24,449 nt of DNA from Nitrospirota bacterium (lineage in GTDB: Bacteria; Nitrospirota; UBA9217). Below are positions 2,705-24,351 of the stretch, one piece after another (position 1 is the stretch's first letter; each line of letters opens with the position of its first letter). The translations under genes were made by a program, and so were the position numbers. The notes below the pieces were generated by a model, which was not told where the DNA came from, made no database searches, and worked only from the letters and a program-made list of their open reading frames with translations. Where the stretch lies: assembly GCA_029858565.1 (NCBI GenBank), contig JAOUEV010000051.1, forward strand, positions 1 through 24,449, given 5' to 3'.

Positions 2705-3478
2705 TCACTTCATTTTGTCATAGGCGATCAGGGCCGCACCCAGCGCGCCGGTGACCTGGGGATCAGACGGGATCTGGAGCCTGACACCGGTCTCCTGTTC
2801 GATCGCCCTTGCCACGCCCGCATTCTTCGCTACACCTCCGGTAAAGACCACATCCTTCTGGAGACCCACCTTTCCGGTCATGGCGAGTGTTCGTTTCGCG
2901 ACCGAGCGGAACACGCCGCGCAATACCACATCTACCGGCGTCCCGCTCTGGGTCAGGCCGATGATCTCAGATTCAGCGAACACGGCGCACATGGAGGAGA
3001 TCTCCCGCGCTTCCGAGGAGTTTTCCGTGAGCTGTCCCATGTTATCGAGCGGAACGTCGAGCATCAAGCCCACCATCTCGATGAACTTGCCCGTGCCTGC
3101 GGCGCAGCGGTCGTTCATCACGAAGTTCATGACCTTGCCGTTCCCGTCAACGCTGATCATCTTCGAGTCCTGGCCGCCGATGTCGATGACCGTGCGGGCC
3201 TGCGGGAACACGTAGGCGACCCCGCGAGCGTGGCAGAGGATCTCCGACGACACGGCGTCAGCTTCTCGGAAGTAGTTCCTGCCATAACCCGTTGCGATCA
3301 CTTTTACCACATCGGACCGCCTGGCGCCGGCCGCAAGCATAGCGTCGAAGAACGCTTTTTTCGCATTCTCCGCAGGCGCGGCGCCGCTTATTGCGGTGAT
3401 CGCCTCTACGATCTGGCCGCCGTCGTACAGCACGACCTCGATGGAACGGGAACCGATATCAACGCCGGCCGTCAGCAT
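2705..3478 (-). CDS. ATP-dependent [4Fe-4S] activator (HgdC/BadF-G/YjiL/DCCP-R type archerase)
   Basis: GVDIGSRS, ATGYGR, SEILCHARG, IDIGGQDSK, MNDRCAAGTGKF, SSMCAVFAESE, FTGGVAKN, GALGAAL. ATG 3478 follows an AGGAG RBS and is preferred over TTG 3493. Confidence 0.93.
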   Translation of the reverse strand: MLTAGVDIGSRSIEVVLYDGGQIVEAITAISGAAPAENAKKAFFDAMLAAGARRSDVVKVIATGYGRNYFREADAVSSEILCHARGVAYVFPQARTVIDIGGQDSKMISVDGNGKVMNFVMNDRCAAGTGKFIEMVGLMLDVPLDNMGQLTENSSEAREISSMCAVFAESEIIGLTQSGTPVDVVLRGVFRSVAKRTLAMTGKVGLQKDVVFTGGVAKNAGVARAIEQETGVRLQIPSDPQVTGALGAALIAYDKMK

Positions 3479-3492
3479 AAAACTCCTAAACA

Positions 3493-3569
3493 AGGATTGC
3501 AGGATCAGAGAATTATAGGATTAAAGGTAGCACCAACCCGAATCCTTACTCCTGTAATCCTTTAATCCC
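3493..3569. repeat. Intergenic imperfect palindrome built from 8-nt units (AGGATTNN) on both arms; REP-like
   Basis: Left arm AGGATTGC-AGGATCAG-AGAATTAT-AGGATTAA; the right arm reverse-complements to GGGATTAA-AGGATTAC-AGGAGTA-AGGATT. Confidence 0.6.
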
Positions 3570-3573
3570 GATT

Positions 3574-4671
3574 CTAAAGCATCTCTATCAGCGTCTGCAC
3601 TCGCACCTTGATCCGTTCGCGGTCCGAGTCCGAATAATCCGTCTCGACCTTCATGTACGGCATTCCGAGCTTCTCGCGCACGAACCGGTCGATCAGGAAC
3701 GATTCCACATTATAGGTATGGCATGCCTGCCATACCAGGTCGATGACCGCCTGCACCTTGAACTCCTTCGCGAGCTTTCCGATCAGCGCTTCGCGCCCCT
3801 TGTTCGGCGTCATGCAGGAGCAGGGGAGCTGGAAGTACTTTCGTGCGATGGCCTCGACAGGATCGCCGGTCTCATCGACCTGGATATCAAGGGGTTTCAT
3901 GCCCGAGCAGGTCTCCTGCACCACGACAACGGCTCCGCATTCCTCGATCACTTCGATCAGCTTGGTCGTGCCCTGGGCTGTTGGGCAGCCGGTGATCATG
4001 ATGCGGGGAGCGCCTTTCTTCGCAGCGAACTTGCCGTGCTTCTTCCGGTCCCGCGCCTCTGCCATGAATGCTTCGAGCATGCGCAGATGGACCGGGTCCC
4101 CGGCAACGCGGTAGCGAAGCTCAGCAAGCTCCATTCCGGTTACTATCGCCGGGTCCTCCTTGCCGAGCTCGAAGGCCGAGCGCAAAAGGCTCCGTTCGTG
4201 GTTCATGTCTTTGATCGCTTTCCGGAGGTCGTCGTCGGTTATGGTGCGGTTGAAAGTCTTTTCCAGCTTCTTCCGGAGCTTTCCGACCTCGGAAACCCAG
4301 TGGGAAAAAGCCTCTTGTTCCTCGAACTTCTGGGTCAATTCCAGAATATGGACCGGTTGCTTTTCAGCGAGGAGCTCGTACATCTTTTTCTTGCCGTCGC
4401 AGGTGGTCTCCGCCACCACGAGGTCCGCGACCATCAGGAAGGGACAGCGGTTCGTGACAATGTACCCGAAGGAGGACTTGATCAGGGGACAGAGGTTCGA
4501 AGGCAGCACGGTCTCGGCCGGCGGGATCGTCCGGTTGCTCGCTCCGCAGAGACAGACCGGCACCGCGTTCGCGGCCAGGATCAGCTCGCGAGGAGTGAAC
4601 TCACAGTAGATGCCCACAACGCCTTTACCCCGGCGCCTGGCGTCGCGCACCAGGTCCACCTCATGGTTCAT
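3574..4671 (-). CDS. Double-cubane [8Fe-9S] cluster protein (DCCP/YjiM-like, 2-hydroxyacyl-CoA dehydratase family); probably the C-terminal half of a Sec read-through fusion 6171->3574
   Basis: GIYCEFTP, VCLCG, NLCPLIKS, ETTCDGKKKMYE, ITGCP, ETCSG, PCSCMTPN, QACHTYNVES, VETDYS...RVQTLIEML. No Shine-Dalgarno before ATG 4671, and the frame stays open back to the UGA at 4747-4749. Confidence 0.88.
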   Translation of the reverse strand: MNHEVDLVRDARRRGKGVVGIYCEFTPRELILAANAVPVCLCGASNRTIPPAETVLPSNLCPLIKSSFGYIVTNRCPFLMVADLVVAETTCDGKKKMYELLAEKQPVHILELTQKFEEQEAFSHWVSEVGKLRKKLEKTFNRTITDDDLRKAIKDMNHERSLLRSAFELGKEDPAIVTGMELAELRYRVAGDPVHLRMLEAFMAEARDRKKHGKFAAKKGAPRIMITGCPTAQGTTKLIEVIEECGAVVVVQETCSGMKPLDIQVDETGDPVEAIARKYFQLPCSCMTPNKGREALIGKLAKEFKVQAVIDLVWQACHTYNVESFLIDRFVREKLGMPYMKVETDYSDSDRERIKVRVQTLIEML

Positions 4672-4720: not shown

Positions 4721-4749
4721 TCGCCGACCGGCGAGGAAACCGGCGTTCA
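4721..4749 (-). promoter_or_regulatory. In-frame UGA plus putative bacterial SECIS hairpin
   Basis: UGA-ACGCCGGUUUCC-UCGCC-GGUC-GGCGA: 12-nt spacer, 5-bp stem, GGUC loop. Confidence 0.7.
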
Positions 4750-6171
4750 GCCGGGTTTCCTGCGCTGCTTCAGCATGTCCATGAAACCCTCCATTCTGTT
4801 CACGACCTGTGCGCTCAAACGGCCCGGAGAGTAGGGCACATCAAAGGACAGGACCGGAATGTTCAATTCCTTTGACACTATTTCGGTGATGGCTTTTTCA
4901 TCGAATGCGCAATGACTGGCGCCGGAGATGCCCGAGATGATCACGCCTTCGGCACCGTACTTCTTCGCGCCTTCGACGATCCTGCGCGCCCGGAACCCGG
5001 CGGAACCTGTCATGGGATCGTCCATGCAGTTCTCGGCAACGGCATCGAAAGGATGTCTGTCAGTAGCGATCGGGAAAAAGGCGTGGCTGATCATGTATTC
5101 GGTGCCGGCAATGCACCCGCCCAGGTCCTCGAGCAGAGTGATGAGCGCGGCATCTGTCGGCGGAGTTGCCCAAAAGATCCGTAAGGGGTCAGGGGTCAGG
5201 GGTGAGGCGTTCAAGCTCAGGCGATGCTTCACCGTTGCAAGCAGGTCATCGAGCACGCAGACGGCTTCGTCCGGGTCGGAGCATGCATGGGGGGCGATGA
5301 ACTCGGCCAGGAGCATCTCAAGTCCGGGGAGGGGCGGCTGCTTTGCGCCGTACACGAGATCTCGCAGCTCCGACACCTTGCTCCGGATGATGTTGAATTT
5401 GTCGCGGCTCTGTTCGAGCATTGCGTCCGTGACCGGAATGCCGCTTACTTCCTCCAGCCGCTTTACCACACCCTTCAACTGGCCTGCCACGAAGTCTCGA
5501 CCGGACCGCTGGTAAGGAGAACCCCCGGGCGAATGCAGGAAGGCCTCCTTGATTATCGGCGATGTCGGCTCGAACCGGACCGCCATCTCCCACCAGTGCG
5601 TGGGGAAGCCTTCAGCCTCGATCAACTGCATGACCGCGGAAAAATCATCGCAGCAGGCGCCTACGCCTGCGATACAGAGGTCGGGCCGGGGGAAGTAGTC
5701 AAGGGTCTTCATGGCGCCGAGAGCTGCCCGGACAAAACAGAGCTCCTCGCCCGCGCCGAGCTTTGCAGCTTCATCGAGCAGGTGTGATTCCTCTGCAAAG
5801 CAGGGCGCCCACCAGAGCTCGTCAGCGTAAAAAGTGAGCGAATCAGGCACCGCATAGCTCAGCACCGGCACTGGTCCCAGGTCCTTCATGGCAGCAAATA
5901 TCTTCCAGCCCTTTTCCTTGGCAAGGAACAGGCGGTCCTTTTCGCTGAAGATAAAGGCCCAGAGACGCAGGGCTGCGAGCGAACTGTCGAACTTGAGCCG
6001 TCGCAGCAGAGTGTCGCCGCGGCAGGAGTACTCGTAGGGACTGAAGAGATAACGAACGCCTCCAGGCACGAGGCTGCGCAGGAACATGCAGCTGGCCCGG
6101 TACGCCTCGGGCACCTGCGGCATCCGCTCTTCCCATTCCATGACGGAGATCTTTTTTACGTCGTTGAACAT
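4747..6171 (-). CDS. 2-hydroxyacyl-CoA dehydratase/benzoyl-CoA reductase-family subunit (divergent); N-terminal half of the predicted 865-aa selenoprotein
   Basis: Family-like motifs AKEKGWKIF, ELCFVRA, GACCDDF, QLKGVVKRLEEVSGIPVTDAML, AKKYGAEGVI, SHCAFD, LNIPVLSFDVPYS...RMEGFMDML; ends in UGA in frame with the downstream DCCP. Confidence 0.82.
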   Translation of the reverse strand: MFNDVKKISVMEWEERMPQVPEAYRASCMFLRSLVPGGVRYLFSPYEYSCRGDTLLRRLKFDSSLAALRLWAFIFSEKDRLFLAKEKGWKIFAAMKDLGPVPVLSYAVPDSLTFYADELWWAPCFAEESHLLDEAAKLGAGEELCFVRAALGAMKTLDYFPRPDLCIAGVGACCDDFSAVMQLIEAEGFPTHWWEMAVRFEPTSPIIKEAFLHSPGGSPYQRSGRDFVAGQLKGVVKRLEEVSGIPVTDAMLEQSRDKFNIIRSKVSELRDLVYGAKQPPLPGLEMLLAEFIAPHACSDPDEAVCVLDDLLATVKHRLSLNASPLTPDPLRIFWATPPTDAALITLLEDLGGCIAGTEYMISHAFFPIATDRHPFDAVAENCMDDPMTGSAGFRARRIVEGAKKYGAEGVIISGISGASHCAFDEKAITEIVSKELNIPVLSFDVPYSPGRLSAQVVNRMEGFMDMLKQRRKPG

Positions 6172-6194
6172 AAGTCAGAACAGTGTCAAATTAG

Positions 6195-7298
6195 CTATTC
6201 CATCATTTCCACGAATGCGTCGATCCGGCTCAAAAGCCGTTCCCGTCCACCCTCTGCATAATCCGAATCGAACACCAGCACTGGCAGGTCAAAGTTCTTG
6301 CGCATGCGCTCCCGTTCTGCGTACCAGTGATCGCAGAACTTGAGGCATTTGACCACAAGGCCCGCGGGCTTACTATCCTTGATTGTTTCCGCGATGCGGT
6401 CGTAGACCGCGCGGTTTGGCCGTGAGCGTGCGCAGGGTGGTTGATGGAATGACCGAAGAGTCAGATTTTTCACGAGGTCATCCTGTGTCTCGTGAGGGGT
6501 TCCATTCTCGACAGCGCTTAGACCAGTGCAGTTAAGCGGCAGGACCGCATAGCCCCGAGCTTCCAGGTCTTCGAGCAGCACGGTATCTTCGTATGCAAGC
6601 GGACTGCCGGTCAGAAGAATGGTCTTCCTGCTCTCAAAGACCGGAGATTTTGCCAGCAAATCTTCGAAAAAGCCGGCCAGTCCCTGCGGACGGGCGACGA
6701 AGAAAAGGTGGAACATGCTGTGGAGATCCAGCGGCGATACTCGGCCGGATCGTGCGGCACGGGCAAGAACACCGGCCGCGGCATCACTGTCCCGCTGCCA
6801 GGTTGCCGCACGCGCAGGATCGAACCGAACGGCGTGGCGGATCTCGAGTTCCGCTGCGATCCGCTGTATCTGGTCAGCATAGTAATCAGCCGACGACCTC
6901 GTCCTGGTCGCCGGGAGCTGGACCGGGTGGACATTCTGACCAAGTGTTCCCGCGAGCGTGTCCATGCCCCTTCGCATGGCATCGCAGGTAAAAAGCCCGA
7001 TCCAGATATCTATTTTCCCATGGGGTCCGCGCTTCTTGCTCACATTGCCCAGCAGTGTCTTGACGAGGGGACAGATATCGGGTCGTACGATCCGCTCTCC
7101 GTCGCTTTCCGCGTCTGAGGATGCTCCGCAGATCACACGGATGGGACGCATTCCCAAACCAGCGATGACCGCGGCTGGGAACGCGTGACAGGTATGGCCA
7201 ACGATCTTGATGCCAGCGGTCCTGTCGCTCTGAATTGAATCCATCTCAGCAGTGAGGCGTGAATCGCAGGCAGTGCGGATTATTGTGGACCCTGTCAT
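6195..7298 (-). CDS. 2-hydroxyacyl-CoA dehydratase-family (HgdB/BcrC-like) subunit; N-terminus possibly encoded by 7295-7414 in another frame
   Basis: IVGHTCHAFP, DICPLVK, FTCDAMRR, LTGSP, LNCTG, PPCAR, LKFCDHW, LPVLVFDSDY...RIDAFVEM; no Shine-Dalgarno before ATG 7298. Confidence 0.85.
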   Translation of the reverse strand: MTGSTIIRTACDSRLTAEMDSIQSDRTAGIKIVGHTCHAFPAAVIAGLGMRPIRVICGASSDAESDGERIVRPDICPLVKTLLGNVSKKRGPHGKIDIWIGLFTCDAMRRGMDTLAGTLGQNVHPVQLPATRTRSSADYYADQIQRIAAELEIRHAVRFDPARAATWQRDSDAAAGVLARAARSGRVSPLDLHSMFHLFFVARPQGLAGFFEDLLAKSPVFESRKTILLTGSPLAYEDTVLLEDLEARGYAVLPLNCTGLSAVENGTPHETQDDLVKNLTLRSFHQPPCARSRPNRAVYDRIAETIKDSKPAGLVVKCLKFCDHWYAERERMRKNFDLPVLVFDSDYAEGGRERLLSRIDAFVEMME

Positions 7299-7414
7299 GT
7301 TATGAAGCTGCCGCCGAGGTCATCGTGTACGCGAAGGAATGCATGATCTCGGCGTTTCTCATGCATCCTGTGCAGGATCTCGCGGTGATCGATATGGTGC
7401 ACGTTGGGCATCAT
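7295..7414 (-). CDS. 39-codon His-rich ORF, or the frameshifted N-terminal part of the 6195-7298 gene
   Basis: MMPNVHHIDHREILHRMHEKRRDHAFLRVHDDLGGSFIT; ATGA overlaps at both ends; resembles the N-terminus of the 4747-6171 protein (V..I...E...RM, FLR, GG). Confidence 0.55.
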   Translation of the reverse strand: MMPNVHHIDHREILHRMHEKRRDHAFLRVHDDLGGSFIT

Positions 7415-8211
7415 TTTTTCACGCCAACAATCCTGGTCCTGCCGAAGGCGCCTTCTTTTGCCTTCTGGAGCATAAATCCCATCTCGCCGCCCATGGCCTG
7501 CATCAGGTTCATATCCCACCCGATGATGCGCAGGGCGTCGAAGGTGAGCTGTTTGGTCAGCATGTCGATGTAGAACTGGATATAGTCCGCGAACTCCGGG
7601 GTCATGTCTTCGGACACCGTGACCTCGAAGCCGTGCTTATTGAGCAGGGACTCGTAGCCTTTCTGGCTTTCCATGTAGGGGAACTTCATGAAGCGATTGA
7701 TGCGTTCGGCATCCTTGTCGGCAAGGCCTTTCGGCCCTTCGACCCAGTCGGTGAAAGCGATGGTGCCTCCCTTTTTTAAAACCCGTGATGCCTCGCTGAT
7801 CTGTTTATCCTTGTCCGCAACATAGCACCATGCATCCTCGCCCCAGACCACGTCAAAGGTATTGCTGTCCCAGGGAATGGTCGTAACGTCGCCGAGCTTG
7901 AACTCTATGGAGCCGTTAAAGCCGCCACGCTCTGCCCGTTTCTTCGCTTCCTCGACCATATGCGCTGTGCCGTCGAGGCCATAACCCTTCACCTGGAAGT
8001 TCTTCACCAGGAACCGGAGACCCGCGCCGAGCGCGCTGCAGAGGTCAAGGACCTTCTGGTCCTTTTTGATGCCCGCTTTCTGGGCCAGGGCCATGGACGA
8101 GGCGAACCCGCCCACATGGATCTGTTCGCCCATGATCATTTCCCAGAGCCGGCCTTCCGGACCTGAGTAGACGGCATTCACATCCTTCAACGTGATATCC
8201 AGTCTCTTCAT
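7411..8211 (-). CDS. Class I SAM-dependent methyltransferase (sarcosine/tocopherol methyltransferase-like)
   Basis: GEQIHVGG, VLDLCSALGAG (motif I variant), GDVTTIPWDSNTFDVVW, RVLKKGG; AAGGA RBS. Confidence 0.9.
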   Translation of the reverse strand: MKRLDITLKDVNAVYSGPEGRLWEMIMGEQIHVGGFASSMALAQKAGIKKDQKVLDLCSALGAGLRFLVKNFQVKGYGLDGTAHMVEEAKKRAERGGFNGSIEFKLGDVTTIPWDSNTFDVVWGEDAWCYVADKDKQISEASRVLKKGGTIAFTDWVEGPKGLADKDAERINRFMKFPYMESQKGYESLLNKHGFEVTVSEDMTPEFADYIQFYIDMLTKQLTFDALRIIGWDMNLMQAMGGEMGFMLQKAKEGAFGRTRIVGVKK

Positions 8212-8257
8212 GTCGGTCCTTTCATGATGAATTGAGATCGAGCAGCCAGTGCGGTCG

Positions 8258-8362
8258 CTAGGCGCTGATCAACAGTAATGCTGATACCGCGAGCGTTGTG
8301 AGAAACCCTGTGAACAGAGCGATTCGGATAATGCGCATGGTGACCTCGAAACGATACAGCAT
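8258..8362 (-). CDS. 34-aa single-pass membrane peptide
   Basis: AAGGAGG RBS, then MLYRFEVTMRIIRIALFTGFLTTLAVSALLLISA-TAG; fills the gap between the MerT-like and methyltransferase genes. Confidence 0.6.
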   Translation of the reverse strand: MLYRFEVTMRIIRIALFTGFLTTLAVSALLLISA

Positions 8363-8399
8363 GGGAGACCTCCTTGGAGCAGGGTGTATGGATAGCCGC

Positions 8400-8786
8400 C
8401 TAGGGCGCGGCCCTGAGATTCTTGATGATCGAGAACGTGGTCAGCATGAGGCTCATGCCAGCCACGATCCAGAGTGTTACCTTCGTTTTTATGCCTACAT
8501 CGCCCTTGTGCTTGAAATAGATTCGGTAGAACGATGTGGCCAGCAGGGTGAAGGTGAACGCGTACAGGAAATAGCGATACTTCACGAACCAAGCCCCGAA
8601 GGCGACGCTTCCCAGGCCAAGACCGGCCAGGATGATGTTCATGTTTCAGAGGATGATCGTTACGACGGCCGAGCCCATGGCACCCTTGGCTGAGCCGATA
8701 CTGCCTTTGCCGGGCAGGGGACAGACCTGTCCGGTTGGAAATGCCTCTTTGGATGGTGACTTTGGCGTGAATTTGAGCTGGTTCAT
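8400..8786 (-). CDS. MerT-like membrane transporter, predicted selenoprotein (128 aa, Sec47)
   Basis: GGAGG RBS and ATG 8786: MNQLKFTPKSPSKEAFPTGQVCPLPGKGSIGSAKGAMGSAVVTIIL-UGA-NMNIILAGLGLGSVAFGAWFVKYRYFLYAFTFTLLATSFYRIYFK... Three TM segments, with the UGA at about the position of the MerT TM1 Cys pair, followed by a SECIS-like hairpin. Confidence 0.8.
8610..8648 (-). promoter_or_regulatory. In-frame UGA plus putative SECIS hairpin
   Basis: UGA-13 nt-UCCU-GGCC-GGUCUU-GGCC-U-GGGA; the loop starts with GGUC 21 nt after the UGA. Confidence 0.7.
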
Positions 8787-8818
8787 GATCCTCCCCTGTG
8801 GAATGCTGAATGATCACT

Positions 8819-8862
8819 ATTATCAGACAGGTGGAAAGGGAAGTCTAATCGTGATTCTTTAT
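8819..8862 (-). promoter_or_regulatory. Putative sigma70 promoter of the left operon with an adjacent LysR-type T-N11-A box
   Basis: Minus strand TAGACT(8847-8842)-17 nt-GATAAT(8824-8819); ATCG-N7-TTAT (8848-8862) abuts the -35. Confidence 0.45.
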
Positions 8863-8930
8863 AGGATGGAGGGGAAGGTGCGGGAAAAATTTATAGGTCC
8901 GGTTCGATAGATTCAAGAAAAGACTCTTTT

Positions 8931-9011
8931 GCCACAGAGGTCGCAGAGGACGCTAGAGAAATGACCTGGTCAGAAAGATAACATCTCAGTGCTTTCCGTG
9001 TTCTCTGTGGC
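8931..9011. repeat. REP-like imperfect palindrome with about 9-nt periodic arms, downstream of the LysR gene
   Basis: GCCACAGAG-GTCGCAGAG-GACGCTAGAGA ... TCTCAGTG-CTTTCCGTG-TTCTCTGTGGC; the outer 9 bp are perfectly inverted. Confidence 0.65.
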
Positions 9012-9037
9012 CGAGTTCAATTCTGATATTGTCGATC

Positions 9038-9931
9038 TTATGCAGAGGGCAGTCGTTCAGAGAGGAACTGGACAAAGACGCGATAGTGTCCCGGAATAGG
9101 TCGGTTCTTTCTGCAAATAATGTGGAAATTCCGCTTCATGCGTACGCCGGTGATCTTTATTTCTTCGACCAGGCCCGCCTTGAGATCGTCCTTCACCACG
9201 AATCGCGAGAGGATCGTTGCGCCGAGTCCCGCCTTGACTGCCTCGCGGAGCGAGTCGGGCGATCCGAGGATCGCCTTGATGTTCAGCGCTTTCATGCTGA
9301 TCTTGTGCAGAAGATGCTGTTTTTCCATGCTGGCGCGGGAATCCGATCCCTCTTCGCGCATCAGAAGTGGGATCGAGAAAAGCTTGAGCGGTGATATCGA
9401 CCTTTTGCCGACAAATCCCGGTTTTGCAACAAGGATCAGTTCATCCTTGAAGGTATGAATCCGTTCTATGTCACCGGCGCTCCGCGGGTCGTCGACGATA
9501 CCCAGCTGAAGATCTCCGGAGGTCACCTGTTCGATGATCTTGCGGGAGTCAGCAATGGTGACCTGGAAAAAGACCTCGGGATATTGCCTGCTGAATTCAG
9601 CGGCAAGGGGAGGGATGACGTAGGAGCCGGGAACGGCCGCGGCGCCGACGGTAATGAGACCCCGCACGGCCTTTTCCGAAGAAAGGAGATCGTTCTTGAT
9701 GTCCTTGAGCCGTTCCATCAGGTCCTCTGCGCGGTTGAAGAGCAATGTGCCTTCCTTCGTGGGGATCGTCTTTCGACCAACGCGATCAAAGAGCTGTATG
9801 CTCAGTTCCTCTTCCAGCTTCTTTACGTGCATGCTGACAGACGGTTGGGTGAGGTGCAGTTCCCGGGAGGCAATGGAAAAACTCCGGTTGCGATAGACTG
9901 AAAGGAAAACTTTGAGCTGATAGATATCCAT
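9038..9931 (-). CDS. LysR-family transcriptional regulator, CysL-like substrate-binding domain
   Basis: HTH MDIYQLKVF...SFSIASRELHLTQPSVSMHVKKLEEELSIQLFDR; PGSYVIP, REEGSDSR, AVKAGLG; GGAG RBS before ATG 9931. Confidence 0.92.
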   Translation of the reverse strand: MDIYQLKVFLSVYRNRSFSIASRELHLTQPSVSMHVKKLEEELSIQLFDRVGRKTIPTKEGTLLFNRAEDLMERLKDIKNDLLSSEKAVRGLITVGAAAVPGSYVIPPLAAEFSRQYPEVFFQVTIADSRKIIEQVTSGDLQLGIVDDPRSAGDIERIHTFKDELILVAKPGFVGKRSISPLKLFSIPLLMREEGSDSRASMEKQHLLHKISMKALNIKAILGSPDSLREAVKAGLGATILSRFVVKDDLKAGLVEEIKITGVRMKRNFHIICRKNRPIPGHYRVFVQFLSERLPSA

Positions 9932-10088
9932 AGCGGTTCTCCAGCCTCTGTTCTGTGGTGGCTTCCTGGTCGACAAGATCAACCACCATGGTCATACTAC
10001 AGTATCAGGGCTTTCGCAGTCAACAGAACCTCGCAAACAACGGCCTTTCTTCTGGAAAAAAACAGGCGTCTTGGTTATACTATTCATC

Positions 10089-10868
10089 ATGACCGAACAA
10101 AAAAGGGAACATTGCGCCCAGTGCGGAACTCAACTGCAGTATCTCACGGCTGCTGTGGACGCTAGATGCACATCCTGTGGCAAGATCTTCCGGTCTCATA
10201 TTACCTGCCCCGAGAACCACGTACTGTGCGACGCCTGTCATGGTAAAGAGGCCCGAAAAATGATCTGGGAACTGGTCAGTACAGACCAGGCAAGGGACCC
10301 GCTCGAGGCGGCGGAGCGAATGATGGCCCATCCGGCAGTCCCGATGCTCTCCTGCGATCACGCGTTCATCGCTGCGGGCGCGCTTCTGACGGCCCTCCAG
10401 AACTCTCCCTGTGGGAAAATGACGGAAAAGGACAGGAAGGAGGTCTTTGACCGCATCGAGGAACAGGCCAGGGGAGGGTATTGTGCTCTTACCGGCGTCT
10501 GCGGCATTGTTCCCGCCATTGGCGCTGTCTTCTCGGTCTTCCTCGGTGCCCGATGCGGAAGCGACCGGGAGCAGCGGATCGTGATGGATGCGGCAACCAG
10601 GACCATGCGGGCGATCACCGAGCTCACCGGACCGAGCTGCTGCAAGGCTTACGTGCGTACTTCGATCGCAGTTGCATCAGAGGTCTTTGCGGAGACCCTG
10701 GGAATCGCTCTTCCTTTGGGGCGCGCCAAGCCAGTCTGCGATCACGCGGAACGGCATCCGCATGGATGCAGGGAAGAGCTCTGTCCGTACTATCGGAAAC
10801 CGTCCAAGGACATCTTTGCAGAAGCCAAATGGGTCCCCGGTATAGCCTGTACTACCTGACGTCCCTAA
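10089..10868 (+). CDS. Cys-rich DUF5714-like protein; predicted C-terminal CTTU-RP selenoprotein (ends at 10859 if the UGA is a stop)
   Basis: CAQCG, CTSCG, CPENHVLCDACH, PMLSCDHAF, GGYCALTGVCG, GPSCCK, CREELCPYY; tail GIACTT-UGA-CGU-CCC-UAA followed by a hairpin. TATACT 7 nt before the ATG suggests a leaderless start. Confidence 0.78.
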
Positions 10869-12157: not shown

Positions 12158-13336
12158 ATGGGTAATGACGGAAAGACACCGATGCTTGATGATCTGGAAA
12201 AAGGAGCATGGCCGAGTTTCGTGAAGGAGATCAAGGTCGCCGCGAAGAAGAGCAACACGGCGAAGGATCTTCTTGGAATTCTCGAGCGGTCCTATAGGGA
12301 CAAAGTCACTCACTGGAAGCACGGCGGTATCGTGGGCGTTCTCGGGTATGGCGGCGGCGTTATCGGCCGTTACTGCGATCTTCCCGAAGAATTCCCCGGC
12401 GTGGCCCACTTCCACACCGTCCGCGTCAATCCGCCGTCAGGATTCTTCTACACGTCCAAGGCGCTCAAAGAACTGTGCGATATTTGGGACAAGTACGGCA
12501 GCGGCATGACCAATATGCATGGCTCCACGGGAGACATGATCTGGCTCGGCACCCAGACCGACAAGCTTGAACCGATCTTCGCTGAGATCACGGCCAAGGG
12601 ATGGGACCTCGGCGGTTCCGGTTCCTGCCTCCGTACCCCGAGCTCCTGCGTCGGTATGGCACGCTGCGAGTTCGCCAATATCGACACAATGGACATCTGC
12701 CACACCCTGACCCACAAGTTCCAGGACGAGCTCCATCGTCCCGCGTTCCCTTACAAGTTCAAGATCAAGGTCTCGGGCTGCGCCAATGACTGCACAGCGG
12801 CCGTGGCCCGCGCCGACATGTCCATCATCGGAACCTGGCGCGACAGCATCCGCATCGACCAGGCCGAAGTGAAGAACTATTCCTCCAAGATGAACATCCA
12901 GGAGGAGATCGTCGGTATGTGCCCGACCAAGTGCATGAGCTTTGACGGTGGCGCTCTGAAGATCAATGACAAGGATTGCAACCGCTGCATGCATTGCATC
13001 AACCAGATGCCGAAGGCGCTCCGCCCCGGAAAAGAGAGGGGTGCCACGATCATGCTCGGCGGCAAGGCCCCGATCGTGACCGGCGCCCTGATGAGCTGGG
13101 TCATCGTTCCCTTCATGAAACTTGAAGCCCCCTATGACAACCTTGAAGACCTTATCCGCAAGCTCTGGGAATGGTGGGATGAGCACGGAAAGAACCGCGA
13201 GCGTATCGGCGAACTCGTTGACCGTATGGGCATGCGCTCCATGCTCGAGTCGACCGGCCTCCCGCCGGTGCCGCAGATGGTGAAGGCGCCGAGGACCAAC
13301 CCCTATGTCTTCTGGGCACCGGGCGAAGTGAAGTAA
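12158..13336 (+). CDS. dsrA: Dissimilatory sulfite reductase alpha subunit
   Basis: TPMLDDLEKGAWPSFV, THWKHGGIVGVLGYGGGVIGRY, siroheme motif CVGMARC...GCANDC, CNRCMHCIN, RTNPY; AAGGAGG RBS. Confidence 0.99.
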   Translation: MGNDGKTPMLDDLEKGAWPSFVKEIKVAAKKSNTAKDLLGILERSYRDKVTHWKHGGIVGVLGYGGGVIGRYCDLPEEFPGVAHFHTVRVNPPSGFFYTSKALKELCDIWDKYGSGMTNMHGSTGDMIWLGTQTDKLEPIFAEITAKGWDLGGSGSCLRTPSSCVGMARCEFANIDTMDICHTLTHKFQDELHRPAFPYKFKIKVSGCANDCTAAVARADMSIIGTWRDSIRIDQAEVKNYSSKMNIQEEIVGMCPTKCMSFDGGALKINDKDCNRCMHCINQMPKALRPGKERGATIMLGGKAPIVTGALMSWVIVPFMKLEAPYDNLEDLIRKLWEWWDEHGKNRERIGELVDRMGMRSMLESTGLPPVPQMVKAPRTNPYVFWAPGEVK

Positions 13337-13378
13337 TGATCTCACAAGAGAGAAAAATTTCAAGGAGGAATACCTAGA

Positions 13379-14452
13379 ATGGCCGACAAACCAAAGAGAA
13401 TAACTGACCTTGGTTCACCTGACTATAAAAAATTCCTGCCTCCCGCGATCGCGAAGAACTACGGGAAGTGGAAATATCATGAACAGCTTGGCAAGGGCGT
13501 GATGAAGCACGTTTCCGAGACCGGCGACGAACTGTACACCGTGCGTATTGCCACGCCCCGACTGGTAAGCACGGACTACATCCGTGAGATGTGCGATATC
13601 GCCGAGAAGTTCTGCGGCGGTTTCCTCCGCTGGACGACCCGCCACAACGTGGAGTTCTTTCCGGCGAAGGACCAGGTTGACGCCCTCACGGCAGACCTCA
13701 AGAAGCGCGGTCACCTGGTCGGCGGCATCGGTTACGGCATCAGCAACGTGGTGCATACCCAGGGCTGGATCCACTGCCACACGCCTGCCACTGACGCCTC
13801 GGGCGTGGTGAAGGCGGTCATGGACGAACTGCATGAGTACTTCACGACGAAGAGCTTGCCGGCACGCGTGCGCATCGCGCTTGCCTGCTGCCTGAATATG
13901 TGCGGCGCCGTGCATTGCTCCGACATCGCCATCCTCGGCATTCATCGCCTGCCTCCCAAGGTGAACGAGGCGACGCTTGCGAACCAGTGCGAGATCCCGA
14001 CGACCATCGCGTCGTGCCCCACGGGCGCCATCAGCCCGAACCCGGCCACGAAGTCGGTGAAGATCAAGGCCGAGCGCTGCATGTACTGCGGCAACTGCTA
14101 CACCATGTGCCCGTCCCTCCCGATCGCAGACGGCTCCGGCGACGGCATCTCGATCTATGTGGGCGGCAAGGTTTCCAATGCCCGCGGCCCGGCGCGGATG
14201 TCCAAGCTGGTCATCCCGTTCCTGCCGAACAACCCGCCGCGCTGGCCCGAGACCGTGAAGGCTGTGAAGCACCTCGTCGAAGTCTATGCCGCGAACGCAA
14301 AGAAGCATGAGCGCATGGGCGAGTGGATCGAGCGGATCGGCTGGGAGCGTTTCTTCAAGCTCACCGGCATTCCGTTCACCTATCAGCATATCGACGACTT
14401 CACTTTTGCCCGTGACACGTTCCGCATGACCCCCACCTTCAAGTGGGAGTAG
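13379..14452 (+). CDS. dsrB: Dissimilatory sulfite reductase beta subunit
   Basis: [71 protein letters not shown]. Confidence 0.99.
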
Positions 14453-19292: not shown

Positions 19293-20288
19293 ATGACAGC
19301 CATAATTTCGTTCATCGCAGTTCTCCTGCTGGTGGCGATCGGCTATGTCGGAGGAAGTGCGGGTCCATCGGTCCGTTTCCTTTTCGGCGTGGTAATTCCC
19401 TATGCGGCATTCATCTTCTTCGTCGGCGGTTTGATCGCACGCATCATGAAATGGGCGAGCTCTCCGGTGCCGTTCAACATCGTTACGACGACAGGCCAGC
19501 AGAAGACCCTGCCCTGGATCAAGCACAGCAAGATAGAAAGTCCCTACAGCGCATTTGGCGTGGTCATCCGCATGGCGCTGGAGATACTGGCGTTCCGGTC
19601 CCTTTTCCGCAATCTGAAGACACAACTGCATGAAGGCGGACGTGTGGCCTACGGCGAAGCAAAATGGCTTTGGATGGCCGGCCTGGCTTTCCATTACTCT
19701 TTTGCGATCATCCTGTTCCGCCATCTTCGTTTCTTCATCGAAAAGGTCCCTGTTGCCGTTCAGATGACTGATATGCTGGATAGCTTTCTTCAGATCGGCG
19801 CTCCGCTCCTGTACGCTACCGATGTCGTCCTCCTGGGAGCGGTCACCTATTTGTTCATCCGCCGCGTGGCCATCCCGCAGGTGCGCTACATATCGCTTGC
19901 GGCTGACTATTTCCCTTTGTTCCTGATCTTCGGGATCGGCGCGACAGGTGTGTTGATGCGGTATTTCACGAAGACCGATATCATTAGTGTGAAGATGCTG
20001 GCCATGGGACTGATCAGCTTCAAACCGGTCGTGCCTGACACCATCGGCGCAATGTTCTTCGTTCACCTTTTCCTGCTTTCAGTTCTGTTCGCTTATTTCC
20101 CACTGAGCAAGCTGGTGCACATGGGCGGCGTATTCCTGAGCCCCACGCGGAACCTGCCGAACAACAGCCGGGCGGTGCGCCACGTCAACCCCTGGAACTA
20201 TCCTGTGCACGTTCATACGTATGAGGAGTATGAGAATGACTTCAGGGATAAGATGAAAGAGGCCGGCCTGCCGGTAGAAAAGGAGTAA
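19293..20288 (+). CDS. dsrM: DsrM, NarI-like membrane cytochrome b
   Basis: KWASSPVPFNI, SLFRN, WLWMAGLAFHYS...RHLR, YFPLSKLVHMGGVFLSPTRN, NPWN. Confidence 0.97.
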   Translation: MTAIISFIAVLLLVAIGYVGGSAGPSVRFLFGVVIPYAAFIFFVGGLIARIMKWASSPVPFNIVTTTGQQKTLPWIKHSKIESPYSAFGVVIRMALEILAFRSLFRNLKTQLHEGGRVAYGEAKWLWMAGLAFHYSFAIILFRHLRFFIEKVPVAVQMTDMLDSFLQIGAPLLYATDVVLLGAVTYLFIRRVAIPQVRYISLAADYFPLFLIFGIGATGVLMRYFTKTDIISVKMLAMGLISFKPVVPDTIGAMFFVHLFLLSVLFAYFPLSKLVHMGGVFLSPTRNLPNNSRAVRHVNPWNYPVHVHTYEEYENDFRDKMKEAGLPVEKE

Positions 20289-20290
20289 TC

Positions 20291-21910
20291 ATGTCCAAAC
20301 TTCCGAAACCTGCTGAATTAGCGAAAGTCTCATATCAGCTTCCCAAGACCGGCTGGATGGATACTCCTGTTGAGTTCAAGCCGGGGATGTTCTGCCACGG
20401 GTCTAAGCCCAAGAGCCTGGAACTGGTGGGGTTTCCCAATCCCCGCGAATGGCGGCCTGCGGACGCTGACTGGAAGCTTCCTGAAAACTGGAAAGAGATC
20501 ATCATTGAGGGGATCGCCGATCGCCTTAAGAAGTACCGGTCCTTCCGGCTGTTCATGGACATCTGCGTGCGCTGCGGCGCCTGCGCGGACAAGTGCCATT
20601 TCTTCATCGGCACCGGCGATCCGAGGAATATGCCGGTACTTCGCGCCGAGCTGATCCGGTCTGTGTACCGCAAGGAATTCACGACTGCCGGAAAGATCCT
20701 CGGCAAGATGGCCGGCGGCCGGGAACTCACTCTCGATGTGCTGAAAGAATGGTGGTACTACTTCTATCAGTGCACGGAATGCCGTCGCTGCTCGGTCTTC
20801 TGCCCCTACGGCATCGATCAGGCGGAGATCACCATCATCGGACGCGAGCTGCTCAACCTGCTTGGTCTGAACATCGAGTGGATCGCGGGCCCGGTCTCGA
20901 ACTGCTACATGAAAGGCAACCACCTGGGCCTTGAACCCCACACGATCGTCGGCAACCTCGAGTATATGCTCGATGACATCGAAACGGTCACCGGCAAGCG
21001 CATCAAGCCGACATTTAACCGGAAGGGCGCGGAGATCCTGTTCGTGACGCCTTCGGGAGATCTGTTCGCTGATCCAGGCACGTACACTGCCATGGGGTAC
21101 CTCATGCTGTTCGAGGAGCTCGGCCTGGATTATACCTGGAGCACCTACGCATCTGAAGGCGGAAACTTCGGGTTCTTCACCTCGAACGAGATGGGCAAAC
21201 GGCTCAATTCCAAGATCTACGCAGAAGCCAAGCGACTCGGCGTGAAATGGATCCTCGGCGGGGAATGCGGACATATGTGGCGCGTGCTCTCGCAGTATAT
21301 GGACACCTGGAACGGCCCTGCCGACTTCCTCGAAGTGCCAAAATCGCCGATCACCGGCACGGTGTTCGAGAACGCCAAATCCATGAAAATGGTCCATGTC
21401 GCCGAATTTACCGCGGACCTGATCAAGAACAACAAGCTCAAGCTGGATCCGAGCCGCAATGACCATCTCAAGGTCACGTGGCACGATTCCTGTAACGTTG
21501 CCCGCGGCATGGGCATGCTTGAGGAACCGCGGTACGTGCTGAAGAGCGTGGTCAACAACTTCGTGGAAATGCCTGAAGACACCATTCGCGAAAAGACCTT
21601 CTGCTGCGGCAGCGGCACCGGTTTGAACGCTTCGGAGAACATGGAGCTTCGCATGAAGGGCGGCTTCCCCCGCGCGAATGCGGTCAAGTATGTCCACGAG
21701 CACCACGGCGTCAATATGCTGGGCAATGTCTGCGCAATCGACCGCGCGTCCCTGAAAGCCCTCATGGAGTACTGGGTGCCAGGCGTGGGCGTATGCGGAC
21801 TCCATGAACTGGTTGCCAATGCCATGATCATGACGGGTGAAAAGGAGAGGACGACCGACCTGCGCGGCGAGCCCCTTCCGAGCGTTGCTGCGAAGGAGGA
21901 AAAAGCCTGA
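20291..21910 (+). CDS. dsrK: DsrK, HdrD-like Fe-S catalytic subunit
   Basis: CVRCGACADKCH, CTECRRCSVFCP, GECGH, HDSCN, TFCCGSG, CAID. Confidence 0.98.
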   Translation: MSKLPKPAELAKVSYQLPKTGWMDTPVEFKPGMFCHGSKPKSLELVGFPNPREWRPADADWKLPENWKEIIIEGIADRLKKYRSFRLFMDICVRCGACADKCHFFIGTGDPRNMPVLRAELIRSVYRKEFTTAGKILGKMAGGRELTLDVLKEWWYYFYQCTECRRCSVFCPYGIDQAEITIIGRELLNLLGLNIEWIAGPVSNCYMKGNHLGLEPHTIVGNLEYMLDDIETVTGKRIKPTFNRKGAEILFVTPSGDLFADPGTYTAMGYLMLFEELGLDYTWSTYASEGGNFGFFTSNEMGKRLNSKIYAEAKRLGVKWILGGECGHMWRVLSQYMDTWNGPADFLEVPKSPITGTVFENAKSMKMVHVAEFTADLIKNNKLKLDPSRNDHLKVTWHDSCNVARGMGMLEEPRYVLKSVVNNFVEMPEDTIREKTFCCGSGTGLNASENMELRMKGGFPRANAVKYVHEHHGVNMLGNVCAIDRASLKALMEYWVPGVGVCGLHELVANAMIMTGEKERTTDLRGEPLPSVAAKEEKA

Positions 21911-22344
21911 TGAAGATCTATAACGGTGGACCGATATTCCTCGGCATCCTGGTATTCCTGGCGATTGCGCTCTTTCCGTTCTACAACAATTTCGGAAAGG
22001 TGAACGCAAAACCGGAGCCGAAGGTGGACACTCCGGCGATCCAGGAGTACGAGAAGGCCAACGGCAAGAAAGAATGCATCGAGTCAAAGGAATGGATGCG
22101 CGGGGAGCACATGCAGATCCTGAACCAGTGGCGTGATTCGGTGGTTCGCGATTACAATCGCACTTACAAGAGCAACTCGCATCCTAATGCTGCTCCGTTT
22201 AACATGAGCCTGCAGAGCGGCTGCATGAAGTGTCATTCAAACAAGAAGAAATTCTGTGACGAGTGCCACAACTATCTGTCCGTCAAGCCCTATTGCTGGG
22301 ATTGCCATATCCAGCCCGAGGAGAAGGAGGAGGTAAAATCATGA
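21910..22344 (+). CDS. dsrJ: DsrJ, triheme cytochrome c
   Basis: N-terminal anchor, MRGEHMQILNQWRDSVVR, CMKCH, CDECH, CWDCH. Confidence 0.97.
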   Translation: MKIYNGGPIFLGILVFLAIALFPFYNNFGKVNAKPEPKVDTPAIQEYEKANGKKECIESKEWMRGEHMQILNQWRDSVVRDYNRTYKSNSHPNAAPFNMSLQSGCMKCHSNKKKFCDECHNYLSVKPYCWDCHIQPEEKEEVKS

Positions 22345-23186
22345 GCATGGATAGGAGACAGTTTCTGAAATTCTCCGGCATCGCCTCCATCCTGGGGTTC
22401 GGCGCCACGGTAGCGGACGCGACCAATCTGATAACGGGAAAGCAGCTTCTCCCCCCTCAGGTGGATAAGAACAAGGAGACTCTCACTGCTAAGCGGTGGG
22501 CAATGGTCGTGGACATGAGCAAGTTCAAGACCGACGAGGATTTCCAGAAGACGATCACGGCCTGCCACAGCATCCATAACGTCCCTGATTTCCGGAAACC
22601 TGATGGCGCTCCCGACCGGAAGTTCGAGGTCAAGTGGATATGGAAGAGCACCTATGAAAAGGCGTTCCCGGGCATGGAAAGCCAGTATCAGAGCGAGCAT
22701 GTGAAGGATATGCCCTTCATGCTGCTGTGCAATCACTGCACGAATCCGGCATGCGTACGGGTCTGCCCCACGAAGGCGACCTATAAACTGCCTGACGGCA
22801 TCACGATGCAGGATATGCATCGTTGTATCGGATGCCGCTTCTGCATGGCAGCCTGTCCTTACGGTGCCAGAAGCTTCAACTGGGTCGATCCGCGCCGGGC
22901 TGCGAATCTCGATCCGGCCAAAGGCGGCAAAGTGAACCCTGAATATCCTACCCGCACCAAAGGCGTGGTGGAAAAATGCACGTTCTGTACTGAACGGCTT
23001 GCTGTCGGGAAGAGGCCTGCCTGTGTCGAGACAGCTCCAGCGGGAGCCTTGCTCTTCGGCGATCTGGAAGATCCAAACTCGGAGGTCAGGAAGATCGTGA
23101 CAAACAAGCTTACGATCCGCAGAAAGCCTGAGCTGGGAACGGGTCCGGCGATCTACTATCTGATCGGAGGTGGCGACCATGCTTGA
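22341..23186 (+). CDS. dsrO: DsrO, periplasmic Fe-S protein with a Tat signal
   Basis: MSMDRRQFLK; CNHCTNPACVRVCP, CIGCRFCMAACP, KCTFC; ATGA overlap with dsrJ and GGAGG RBS. Confidence 0.96.
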   Translation: MSMDRRQFLKFSGIASILGFGATVADATNLITGKQLLPPQVDKNKETLTAKRWAMVVDMSKFKTDEDFQKTITACHSIHNVPDFRKPDGAPDRKFEVKWIWKSTYEKAFPGMESQYQSEHVKDMPFMLLCNHCTNPACVRVCPTKATYKLPDGITMQDMHRCIGCRFCMAACPYGARSFNWVDPRRAANLDPAKGGKVNPEYPTRTKGVVEKCTFCTERLAVGKRPACVETAPAGALLFGDLEDPNSEVRKIVTNKLTIRRKPELGTGPAIYYLIGGGDHA

Positions 23187-24351
23187 GAAAGCACTGGAAG
23201 GAAGCAAGAAATACTGGGCATGGGTGTTCTTTCTCGGCATCTTTGCCTTGAGCGGGACCTATTGGTACATACGGCAGTTCAATGAAGGCCTTGGTTTGAC
23301 CGGCATGCACCGTGACGTGTCGTGGGGATTGTATATCGGCCAATTCACGTTCCTGGTCGGTGTTGCAGCGTCGGCCGTCATGCTTGTGATCCCGTACTAT
23401 CTCCATGACTTCAAGAAGTTCGGGAAGATCGTGATCCTCGGCGAGTTCCTGGCGATCTCGGCTGTGACCATGTGCATCCTGTTCATCTTCGTGGACATGG
23501 GACAGCCAATGCGCATCATGAACGTGATGCTGCATCCGACACCGGGTTCGGTCATGTTCTGGGACTCGGTCGTGCTGTCCGGCTATCTCTTCATCAACGC
23601 ACTGGTCGGCTGGGTGACCCTGGGCGCTGACAAGAAGGGTGTGCCTCCGCCGAAGTGGATCAAACCGTTCATTTATCTTTCGATCCCCTGGGCCATCAGT
23701 ATTCACACCGTGACGGCGTTCCTGTATTCCGGCGTTCCCGGCCGTCATTTCTGGCTCACGGCGGTCATGGCTGCCCGGTTCCTGGCGTCGGCATTCGCCG
23801 GCGGCCCGGCGCTGCTGATCATATTGGCACTGATCGTGCGAAAGGTCAGCAAGTTCGATGCGGGCAAGGATGTGATCCAGGCGATCAGCAGGATCGTGGC
23901 CTATGCCATGTTTGCCAACGTTTTCCTGCTCGGGCTGGAGTTCTTTACCGCGTTTTACAGCGGCATCCCGGGTCATCAGCATCCCTTTGTGTATCTGTAC
24001 AAAGGCCTTGACGGTCATTCTGAACTGGTAACGCTCATGTGGACGTCATCGATCTTTGCGGCAGTGTCGCTCATCATGCTCTGGGTCCCCAAGATCCGGA
24101 GGAACGAAGGACTGCTGGCGCTTGCGTGCATCATGCTGTTTTCGTCCCTCTGGATCGACAAGGGTTTCGGCCTGATCATCGGTGGTTTTGTGCCGAATCC
24201 TTTCGAGGAGGTGAATCCCTACTGGCCCACCTATCCCGAGACCATGATCACGATCGGGGTTTGGGCAATCGGATTCATCGTCCTTACCTTCCTGTATAAG
24301 ATCGCCATCTCTGTCAGGGAACAGACGGCGGGCGTGGAGATCGAACACTGA
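23179..24351 (+). CDS. dsrP: DsrP, NrfD/PsrC-family membrane protein
   Basis: TGMHRDVSWGLYIGQFTFLVGVAASAVM, SIPWAISIHTVTAF, ARFLASAF, WIDKG; ATG 23179 follows GGAGG. Confidence 0.97.
   Translation: MLEKALEGSKKYWAWVFFLGIFALSGTYWYIRQFNEGLGLTGMHRDVSWGLYIGQFTFLVGVAASAVMLVIPYYLHDFKKFGKIVILGEFLAISAVTMCILFIFVDMGQPMRIMNVMLHPTPGSVMFWDSVVLSGYLFINALVGWVTLGADKKGVPPPKWIKPFIYLSIPWAISIHTVTAFLYSGVPGRHFWLTAVMAARFLASAFAGGPALLIILALIVRKVSKFDAGKDVIQAISRIVAYAMFANVFLLGLEFFTAFYSGIPGHQHPFVYLYKGLDGHSELVTLMWTSSIFAAVSLIMLWVPKIRRNEGLLALACIMLFSSLWIDKGFGLIIGGFVPNPFEEVNPYWPTYPETMITIGVWAIGFIVLTFLYKIAISVREQTAGVEIEH

Follow-up and report, generated by a model that had tools for sequence, protein, structure and literature searches.

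A predicted MerT-superfamily membrane selenoprotein of Nitrospirota whose gene is split at an in-frame UGA in standard annotation

In the mercury transporter MerT, the Cys pair of the first transmembrane helix (TM1) takes Hg(II) from the periplasm and hands it to cytoplasmic Cys residues by ligand exchange; in the Tn501 protein, a second Cys pair is present in the cytoplasmic loop joining TM2 and TM3. The subject of this work is a gene specifying a predicted MerT relative that contains an in-frame UGA read, on comparative evidence, as selenocysteine (Sec, U). It was found in a 24,449-nucleotide stretch of DNA from a Nitrospirota bacterium (contig JAOUEV010000051.1), hereafter the window. Selenoproteins of the MerT family are already in print. 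Passages of PMC9312934 and PMC13188914 list a 'putative mercuric transport protein' (PF02411, ABB16073.1) as a selenoprotein, the latter giving the motif C/SxxU for proteins of this type, and a selenoprotein described in the same way appears in a table of PMC1976440. According to passages of Haft and Gwadz (bioRxiv 10.1101/2022.07.06.499078), a small group with a CU motif (WP_250634603.1) is used by NCBI's pipeline, selenoprotein-rich metal transport genes lie beside double-cubane reductases in the selenocysteine-assisted organometallic (SAO) system of Clostridia, and nearly all double-cubane reductases occur in SelD-positive genomes.

Like the MerT proteins of Tn501 and Tn21 (PRK13751, merT_RC607, PF02411), the window protein is small and has three predicted transmembrane helices, a reactive residue in TM1 placed 12 residues ahead of a G-L-G-L-G turn, and the blocks L-A-x-L-G-L-G, Y-R and F-Y-R-x-Y. 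In contrast to them, it has a lone Sec in place of the Cys-Cys pair, no Cys pair in the cytoplasmic loop, and an extra N-terminal tail of ∼35 residues with a conserved Cys; its score falls far under the family cut-offs and no mer operon accompanies it. Relatives are referred to below as XU, CU or CC type depending on whether the TM1 site reads [L/V/I]-U, C-U or C-C. The gene and its signals are as follows:

8400..8786, minus strand: coding sequence of a predicted 128-residue MerT-superfamily selenoprotein (sequence and translation, 26 read-through homologues, and a merT_RC607 match spanning the UGA)
8790..8794, minus strand: Shine-Dalgarno-like GGAGG with a 3-nt spacer to the ATG (direct sequence reading)
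8819..8847, minus strand: promoter-like site TAGACT-17 nt-GATAAT (9 of 12 consensus matches; weak alone)
8721..8723, minus strand: codon of Cys22, in the N-terminal motif G-x-[V/M/I/F]-C of XU members with a long N-terminus
8646..8648, minus strand: in-frame TGA, predicted Sec47 (TGA in 26 of 26 Sec-clade sequences, second Cys of the CC pair in Cys homologues, the same in contig X2)
8610..8632, minus strand: hairpin resembling a selenocysteine insertion sequence (SECIS), with 8 pairs, one bulged U and the apical loop GGUCUU (8624-8619), its stem starting 13 nt after the UGA

The frame runs on the minus strand from an ATG at 8786-8784 (8796-8784 reads GGGGAGGATC-ATG) to a TAG at 8402-8400, and the TGA at 8648-8646, codon 47, is the only one in frame. 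The read-through product of 128 residues includes the segments VVTIIL-U-NMNIILAGLGLG and VCPLP, the Cys of the latter being Cys22 (8723-8721). The initial annotation had described an open reading frame (ORF) track giving just an 80-residue fragment devoid of a ribosome-binding site, with GGAGG and the ATG at 8786 in frame with it, and its coordinates were exact; the 128-residue product, the VCPLP motif and the position of the UGA were also as it had them. Under translation table 11 the gene is split into a 46-residue ORF (8646..8786) and an 80-residue ORF (8400..8642), the second having its own ATG and no Shine-Dalgarno sequence. It is this 80-residue fragment that represents the gene in public collections. 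Its close database relatives are likewise all fragments (10 of 10, 76-80 residues), the N-terminal halves being filed apart as proteins of 45-48 residues. Since the database entries are fragments cut at the UGA, the XU clade of membrane selenoproteins has been missed by standard annotation. Four promoter-like sites were found against 1.5 expected, hence that at 8819..8847 is weak by itself; this stretch and the intergenic sequence are also kept upstream of the homologue L071 (84% identical). No terminator-like site was found in window positions 8150-10120.

A first scan of genome contigs with the single protein as query returned no relative. With the read-through protein as query, four homologues with an in-frame TGA were recovered from 101 related genomes, so that five genomes, including that of the window, carry it in the same column. 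A profile built from these five sequences matched 28 of 401 genomes of the phylum at 30 places: TGA occupied the Sec column in 10 genomes, 19 places had no stop, and one weak, partial match had TGA in another column. Scanning 185,579 species genomes yielded 8 loci, all of them Nitrospirota or Thermodesulfovibrionales metagenome-assembled genomes, of which three were new and had TGA in each case; a metagenome scan gave 13 loci, with TGA in 13 of 13. In the nucleotide alignment of 26 sequences (22 XU and 4 CU), T-G-A is invariant across protein identities of ∼26-50%.

An exhaustive HMMER search returned 14 matches: five C-terminal fragments, five N-terminal fragments, and four full-length proteins (P0021-P0024) carrying a MerT-type C-C pair. 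The five N-terminal fragments are independent, 45-48 residues long and 61-76% identical, and end exactly before the UGA. Together with 16 CC-type loci of the phylum, the full-length proteins make up 20 homologues with Cys at the Sec column. Of the Cys/Sec columns in the combined alignment, only the U column is invariant, and it coincides with the second Cys of the MerT TM1 pair. At codon +2 (position 49) the 22 XU sequences have Ile (16), Met (2) or Val (2), as listed; Met49 is restricted to the window and its nearest relatives, and the fragments predicted by gene callers begin at varied later residues. Contig X2, from a different study, covers 8300-8899 and is ∼94% identical to the window. 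Sixteen of the 19 substitutions listed in the ORF fall at third codon positions (12 of 15 upstream of the UGA, 4 of 4 downstream), an in-frame GAA is inserted (3 nt), and both the TGA and 8610-8632 are unchanged. The X2 run was assembled by others from one sample at a depth of 4.5, so single differences may be errors. Of the 10 runs listed, none was an RNA run.

The initial annotation had proposed a MerT-like selenoprotein, to be doubted if homologues began at Met49, if nothing upstream of the UGA were conserved, or if Trp or another non-Cys residue stood at position 47. Position 49 is mostly Ile; the N-terminal fragments and the third-position pattern of X2 reveal conservation upstream of the UGA; position 47 is U in 26 of 26 Sec-clade members and Cys in the CC homologues, never Trp. 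All three points came out in favour of the proposal, the core of which holds: judged from the sequence comparisons, the UGA at 8648-8646 is a selenocysteine codon. Two candidate relatives were dropped, one (G091/L023) with an E value of 0.0048, an in-frame TAG and an unrecognisable motif, the other (G029/L053) a partial match with an E value of 4e-4 and its TGA in a different column.

By consensus, a bacterial SECIS is a stem-loop placed a short distance past the UGA and having G/U in its apical loop. The GGCC-GGUCUU-GGCC stem that had been noted after the UGA does occur, and its pairing continues to a total of 8 pairs interrupted by one bulged U; positions 8632-8610 read UCCUGGCC-GGUCUU-GGCC-U-GGGA, and the loop conforms to RGUNUN across relatives. 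Among the 22 XU sequences, the stem codons are frozen (+6 CTG, +7 GCC and +8 [G/A]GT in 22 of 22, +10 GGC in 20 and +11 CTG in 21), the Leu codon +9 in the loop is free (third-position entropy 1.95), and invariant Ala, Ser, Val, Gly, Thr and Leu codons outside the stem have third-position entropies of 1.4-1.9. Across the 26 sequences, 94.7% of 208 cells are paired, against 22-79% in slid registers. Compensatory changes occur at pair 18-38 (CG to GC, two sequences) and pair 21-34 (GC to AU, one sequence), and covariation was 0.132 versus 0.093 ± 0.008 in shuffled alignments, a value attained by none of 500 shuffles. Since kinship alone can lift related sequences above shuffles in such a test without any structure, the frozen wobble pattern is the stronger argument for the hairpin. 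An alternative register (B, with a 7-nt loop and no bulge) was slightly worse than register A (86.3% versus 88.8% paired). An Rfam scan of the whole window gave no matches, though Rfam may lack a bacterial SECIS model.

The relationship to MerT is carried by NCBIfam model merT_RC607, which the read-through protein matched across the UGA with an E value of 1.9e-7 (residues 36-121 on model positions 9-94 of 97). Relatives matched the same model at 4e-10 and 3e-8, the CU-type one also matching MerT PRK13751 and MerTP, and MerT-HMA fusions exist among the distant Cys homologues (P0022, P0024). A weak AlphaFold2 (AF2) model built with 10 sequences tentatively placed helices at 36-47/49-69, 71-92 and 99-126, with a kink at Sec47-Asn48 and a mean predicted local distance difference test score (pLDDT) of 61. 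In a maximum-likelihood tree of 46 rows, the 22 XU sequences formed one clade (support 99/94) with the four CU sequences as its sister (98/89), and the Sec forms were split from the 20 CC forms with support 99/97. These groups are defined by the motif itself; the tree was calculated without L053, L051 (C-N for C-C, at a contig end), L043 (which has CC) and L054 (missed by the CC..P pattern). The simplest history suggested by these sequences would be C-C to C-U to X-U.

Codon −1 in the window clade is Leu in 14, Val in 5 and Ile in 3 of the 22 members, position −3 is mostly A, F or V, and the CU dipeptide is confined to the sister clade. All 20 XU sequences with a long N-terminus have a Cys in G-[P/Q/D]-x-C or R-P-[Y/F]-C, ∼25 residues before Sec; two short forms (L034, L070) have M-[K/R]-C-S in its place. 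In the TM2-TM3 loop, many XU members have one Cys, which the window protein lacks. The MerT layout with a single Sec for the Cys pair, as first proposed, stands as regards the layout; the Sec replaces only the second Cys, the first being Leu, Val or Ile in the 22 sequences. By these comparisons, the window protein is a MerT-superfamily membrane selenoprotein with three predicted helices. The [L/V/I]-U-[N/Q] clade to which it belongs is distinct, has the MerT-like selenoproteins of C-U type as its sister group, and was found only in Nitrospirota. Close to the end of the CU-type gene of G033 (L033 / L022) there is a second TGA, and the third-helix region of this gene is degenerate with respect to relatives; this end could reflect a second Sec, a frameshift or decay.

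The published MerT-family selenoproteins belong to the same superfamily and have Sec at the same TM1 column, and the CU-type relatives found here (G033, G222, G263, G359) constitute the sister clade of the window clade. The latter differs in having Leu, Val or Ile before Sec and no Cys or Ser at −3, which sets it apart as far as the motifs printed in the passages cited above go. It differs also in its N-terminus and in its neighbours: CU-type genes lie between TsoA-like and MbdU/DUF5714 genes, while XU-type genes lie by a double-cubane reductase or an activase. With MerT-family selenoproteins bearing C/SxxU and CU motifs already published, to judge from those passages, the find is less novel than the initial annotation implied. 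The branch with a lone Sec, a conserved N-terminal Cys motif, matches only in Nitrospirota, and truncated database entries was not found in print. A literature search returned no paper describing the XU clade, though Haft and Tolstoy 2025 (mSystems) might already cover it or its neighbourhood.

The host genome holds the full Sec-decoding machinery: selB (389 bits, cut-off 242), tRNA-Sec (selC; 64 bits, cut-off 47), selA (604 bits) adjoining selB, and two selD genes, both of which contain an in-frame TGA themselves. A pyridine nucleotide-disulfide oxidoreductase gene of the same genome (G000:C4:431-1765, plus strand; 329 bits with the MerA model, below cut-off) has one in-frame TGA and is a candidate further selenoprotein. 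The window also contains, at 12158-14452 and 19293-24351, two adjacent NIR_SIR genes resembling dsrAB and a DsrMKJOP-like set (Nitrate_red_gam, CCG/4Fe-4S protein, Fer4_11, NrfD); on this evidence, the host would seem to be a sulfite or sulfate reducer within Nitrospirota.

The genes surrounding the selenoprotein gene are the following:

9038..9982, minus strand: LysR-type regulator (HTH_1 and LysR_substrate in the domain scan), directly upstream; a LysR homologue is also beside the gene in L071 and L082
8258..8362, minus strand: 34-residue hydrophobic ORF with AAGGAGG, 37 nt past the selenoprotein stop, kept in L071; it matched no NCBIfam family
7411..8211, minus strand: S-adenosylmethionine (SAM)-dependent methyltransferase, downstream (best NCBIfam matches a DVU_1556-family model and arsenite methyltransferase, both below cut-off)
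4747..7298, minus strand: two HGD-D family genes (6195-7298 and 4747-6171; 134 and 48 bits against a cut-off of 350), distant relatives of double-cubane reductases
3574..4671, minus strand: double-cubane-cluster anaerobic reductase (NF040772, 451 bits, cut-off 350)
2705..3493, minus strand: ATP-dependent activase (BcrAD/BadFG, acyl-CoA dehydratase activase; TIGR00241, 244 bits, cut-off 125)
10071..10859, plus strand: DUF5714 protein, divergent (PF18978, 150 bits; MbdU NF045648, 325 bits, cut-off 600, model positions 35-272 of 468)

The downstream genes form a co-directional series with short gaps (34-residue ORF, methyltransferase, two HGD-D genes, double-cubane reductase, activase, an unknown ORF and an O-methyltransferase). 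Model NF045648 is entitled 'metal-binding double selenoprotein MbdU'; the window DUF5714 protein is devoid of the DUF2284 half and of an in-frame UGA, and a literature search on DUF5714 found no paper. The names MbdU and TsoA reportedly come from Haft and Tolstoy 2025. Just upstream of the promoter-like site, two copies of CCTATAAA are present ∼33 nt apart (window ∼8850-8900, minus strand) and are kept in L071; they are a candidate binding site for the neighbouring LysR regulator.

Neighbours were compared by clustering the ORFs within 4 kb across the 25 other loci; many of the contigs are only 1.2-2.2 kb long, so missing neighbours mean little. A double-cubane reductase or an activase is nearby in 11 of the 22 XU loci. 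The activase lies within 4 kb in nine of them, immediately upstream on the same strand in six; in the window it is ∼4.9 kb downstream. HGD-D or double-cubane genes are present at seven loci including the window, all of XU type; those in the window, L024, L065 and L074 include bona fide double-cubane reductases (NF040772). LysR genes are found at three loci, TsoA-like ORFs at four and DUF5714 genes at five, directly downstream of all four CU-type genes and divergent in the window. CU-type genes (L027 6061-7894; L061 6107-7950; L060 144-2011) sit between an 89-residue ORF, which matches only the C-terminal part of the selenoprotein TsoA (66-144 of 144), and a DUF5714-DUF2284 gene scoring 593 bits with MbdU, just below the cut-off of 600; from their sequences, each of these loci resembles a run of three genes that standard gene calling cuts short at UGA. 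Three XU loci have B12-binding or radical SAM genes on their downstream side (L071 1414-1793; L058 3767-5236; L078 795-1925); in L071, the nearest relative of the window, such a gene takes the place of the SAM methyltransferase. In genome G381, a frame with 2x rhodanese-SRPBCC continues stop-free into the MerT-Sec frame (L058 6617-8208, minus strand), and may be a 530-residue rhodanese-SRPBCC-MerT-Sec fusion, an internal start being possible.

A Sec-to-Cys relay is proposed since the selenolate occupies the TM1 site of MerT and it is now the N-terminal tail that carries the conserved Cys. By analogy with MerT, a thiophilic cargo would cross the inner membrane by ligand exchange: the TM1 selenolate of Sec47 would take it up, Cys22 (in the tail, which would be cytoplasmic if the MerT topology holds) would accept it, as might the loop Cys in many relatives, and Cys22 would then hand it on to cytosolic partners. 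Judged from the gene neighbourhood, the cargo could be a soft metal, metalloid or chalcogen species handled by the ATP-dependent double-cubane reductase and by Cys-rich MbdU-like, rhodanese or YedF proteins. We infer this relay from the parallel with MerT. One gene for a 128-residue MerT-superfamily membrane selenoprotein, acting through such an analogous Sec/Cys relay on a thiophilic cargo, is very probably the best overall explanation of the locus.

Several observations weigh against it. Pfam MerT (PF02411) did not match the window protein even at E ≤ 10, and the merT_RC607 score is 31.3 bits, below the family cut-off of 130. The single-sequence fold of the window hairpin was no better than that of shuffles (z −0.62), so the case for the hairpin rests on the comparative data. 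In the weak AF2 model the N-terminal 38 residues, Cys22 among them, are disordered (pLDDT <50). The TM2-TM3 loop of the window protein (KHKGDVGIKTK) has no Cys, and TM1 has Leu-Sec and no vicinal Cys; the MerT relay can therefore not be copied one to one. Eleven XU loci, mostly on contigs of 1.2-2.2 kb, have neither reductase nor activase, although four of these eleven (G042, G381, G177 and L064) had at least 4 kb of flank on each side. The neighbours are also mixed: CcsA-like at five loci, ResB-like, MFS, B12-radical SAM and rhodanese-SRPBCC at three each, SCO1 at two and YedF at one.

Some of these mixed neighbours would fit a protein that moves selenide, perselenide or persulfide to cytosolic carriers, as an analogue of YedE/YeeE. 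The YedF selenium-metabolism gene (TIGR03527, 151 bits, cut-off 110) is directly upstream in G177, the G381 frame joins rhodanese-SRPBCC to MerT-Sec, L074 and L076 have separate rhodanese-SRPBCC genes downstream, dsrAB and dsrMKJOP-like genes are in the window, and the passages of Haft and Gwadz (bioRxiv 10.1101/2022.07.06.499078) report the tight co-occurrence of SelD and double-cubane reductases. However, YedF or rhodanese neighbours occur at just 4 of the 22 XU loci and not in the window, the protein showed no homology to any known transporter of Se or S, and the G381 fusion is itself a candidate in which translation may start internally. Chalcogen trafficking of this kind seems unlikely.

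The initial annotation had favoured a high-affinity carrier of Hg or MeHg, and a classical importer, a MerT taking up Hg(II) or MeHg for detoxification, would account for MerT being the only named family matched and for Sec standing at the metal-binding Cys position; in the passages cited above, moreover, MerT-family selenoproteins are listed as putative mercuric transport proteins. The context gives this role no support. The genome, rated 100% complete, has no MerA above cut-off (best 337 bits versus 454), and a scan of the window and of selected ORFs in the relatives' flanks revealed no MerR, MerP or MerA; by comparison, the sole CC-type relative that was checked (G073, L041) has a MerR-family regulator as its neighbour. 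The window protein also lacks the second Cys pair, which in MerT is in the cytoplasmic loop. The gene neighbourhood thus points away from classical mercury detoxification, and we consider a mercury importer quite improbable.

A further alternative is a transmembrane redox relay in which Sec47 and Cys22 carry reducing equivalents, in the manner of CcdA/DsbD, to periplasmic thioredoxin-fold or cytochrome-maturation proteins. The shared traits are a membrane-embedded, redox-active chalcogen residue and, at some loci, cytochrome c maturation or thioredoxin-fold neighbours: L065, L082, L074 and L076 have CcsA-like (PF01578; CcsB TIGR03144 below cut-off) and ResB-like genes downstream, G037 and G042 have SCO1/SenC in divergent orientation, thioredoxin-like small ORFs adjoin CU-type genes, and a Pyr_redox_2 gene adjoins the G080 locus. 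None of these neighbours is in the window, however, and the commonest neighbour is a cytosolic reductase or activase, not a periplasmic redox protein. No similarity to DsbD or CcdA was detected with Pfam or NCBIfam, and the protein has three predicted helices, where CcdA/DsbD have six or more, and a single membrane-embedded redox residue, which makes such a relay very unlikely.

That the UGA is a true stop (separating two small genes or marking a nonsense pseudogene) or directs insertion of another residue is hardly credible: public gene calls do keep the 80-residue and 46-48-residue pieces separate and the single-sequence fold is unremarkable, but the TGA persists in all 26 sequences despite their divergence, homologues have Cys in its column, no start is conserved after it, purifying selection acts on both sides, the hairpin is constrained at the RNA level, and the genome has Sec machinery along with selD genes that themselves contain an in-frame UGA.

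The preferred reading, a MerT-superfamily selenoprotein with a Sec/Cys relay, may be set beside the SAO system. As far as SAO is described in the passages of bioRxiv 10.1101/2022.07.06.499078, both have Sec-bearing membrane or transport proteins for presumed metal species adjoining 8Fe-9S double-cubane reductases and their activase, in SelD-positive anaerobes. According to the same passages, the SAO transporter is an ABC system accompanied by a lyase resembling MerB and by an efflux pump; none of these was seen here, and SAO belongs to Clostridia, not Nitrospirota. A lone membrane-embedded selenolate with a conserved cytoplasmic Cys partner would be an unusual transporter design, and a whole clade of such predicted membrane selenoproteins is invisible to standard annotation. 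The recurrent adjacency to double-cubane reductases and activases extends the link that those passages draw between selenium, metal-handling selenoproteins and double-cubane enzymes to a new phylum and a new transporter type. One tentative extension, which we think doubtful as it stands, is that the [L/V/I]-U selenoprotein, the activase and the 8Fe-9S double-cubane reductase constitute a single selenium-dependent module of sulfate-reducing Nitrospirota: the selenolate would capture a soft metal(loid) or chalcogen species, and the cytoplasmic Cys would pass it to the very-low-potential reductase and, in the window, maybe on to the methyltransferases. The find is of moderate interest in itself and would be of greater interest if the double-cubane link were a functional module. 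Such a module would represent a Gram-negative equivalent of SAO in Clostridia and would provide the first genomically defined substrate-delivery partner for double-cubane reductases, the physiological substrates of which are unknown; the question of what these enzymes reduce could then become experimentally approachable.

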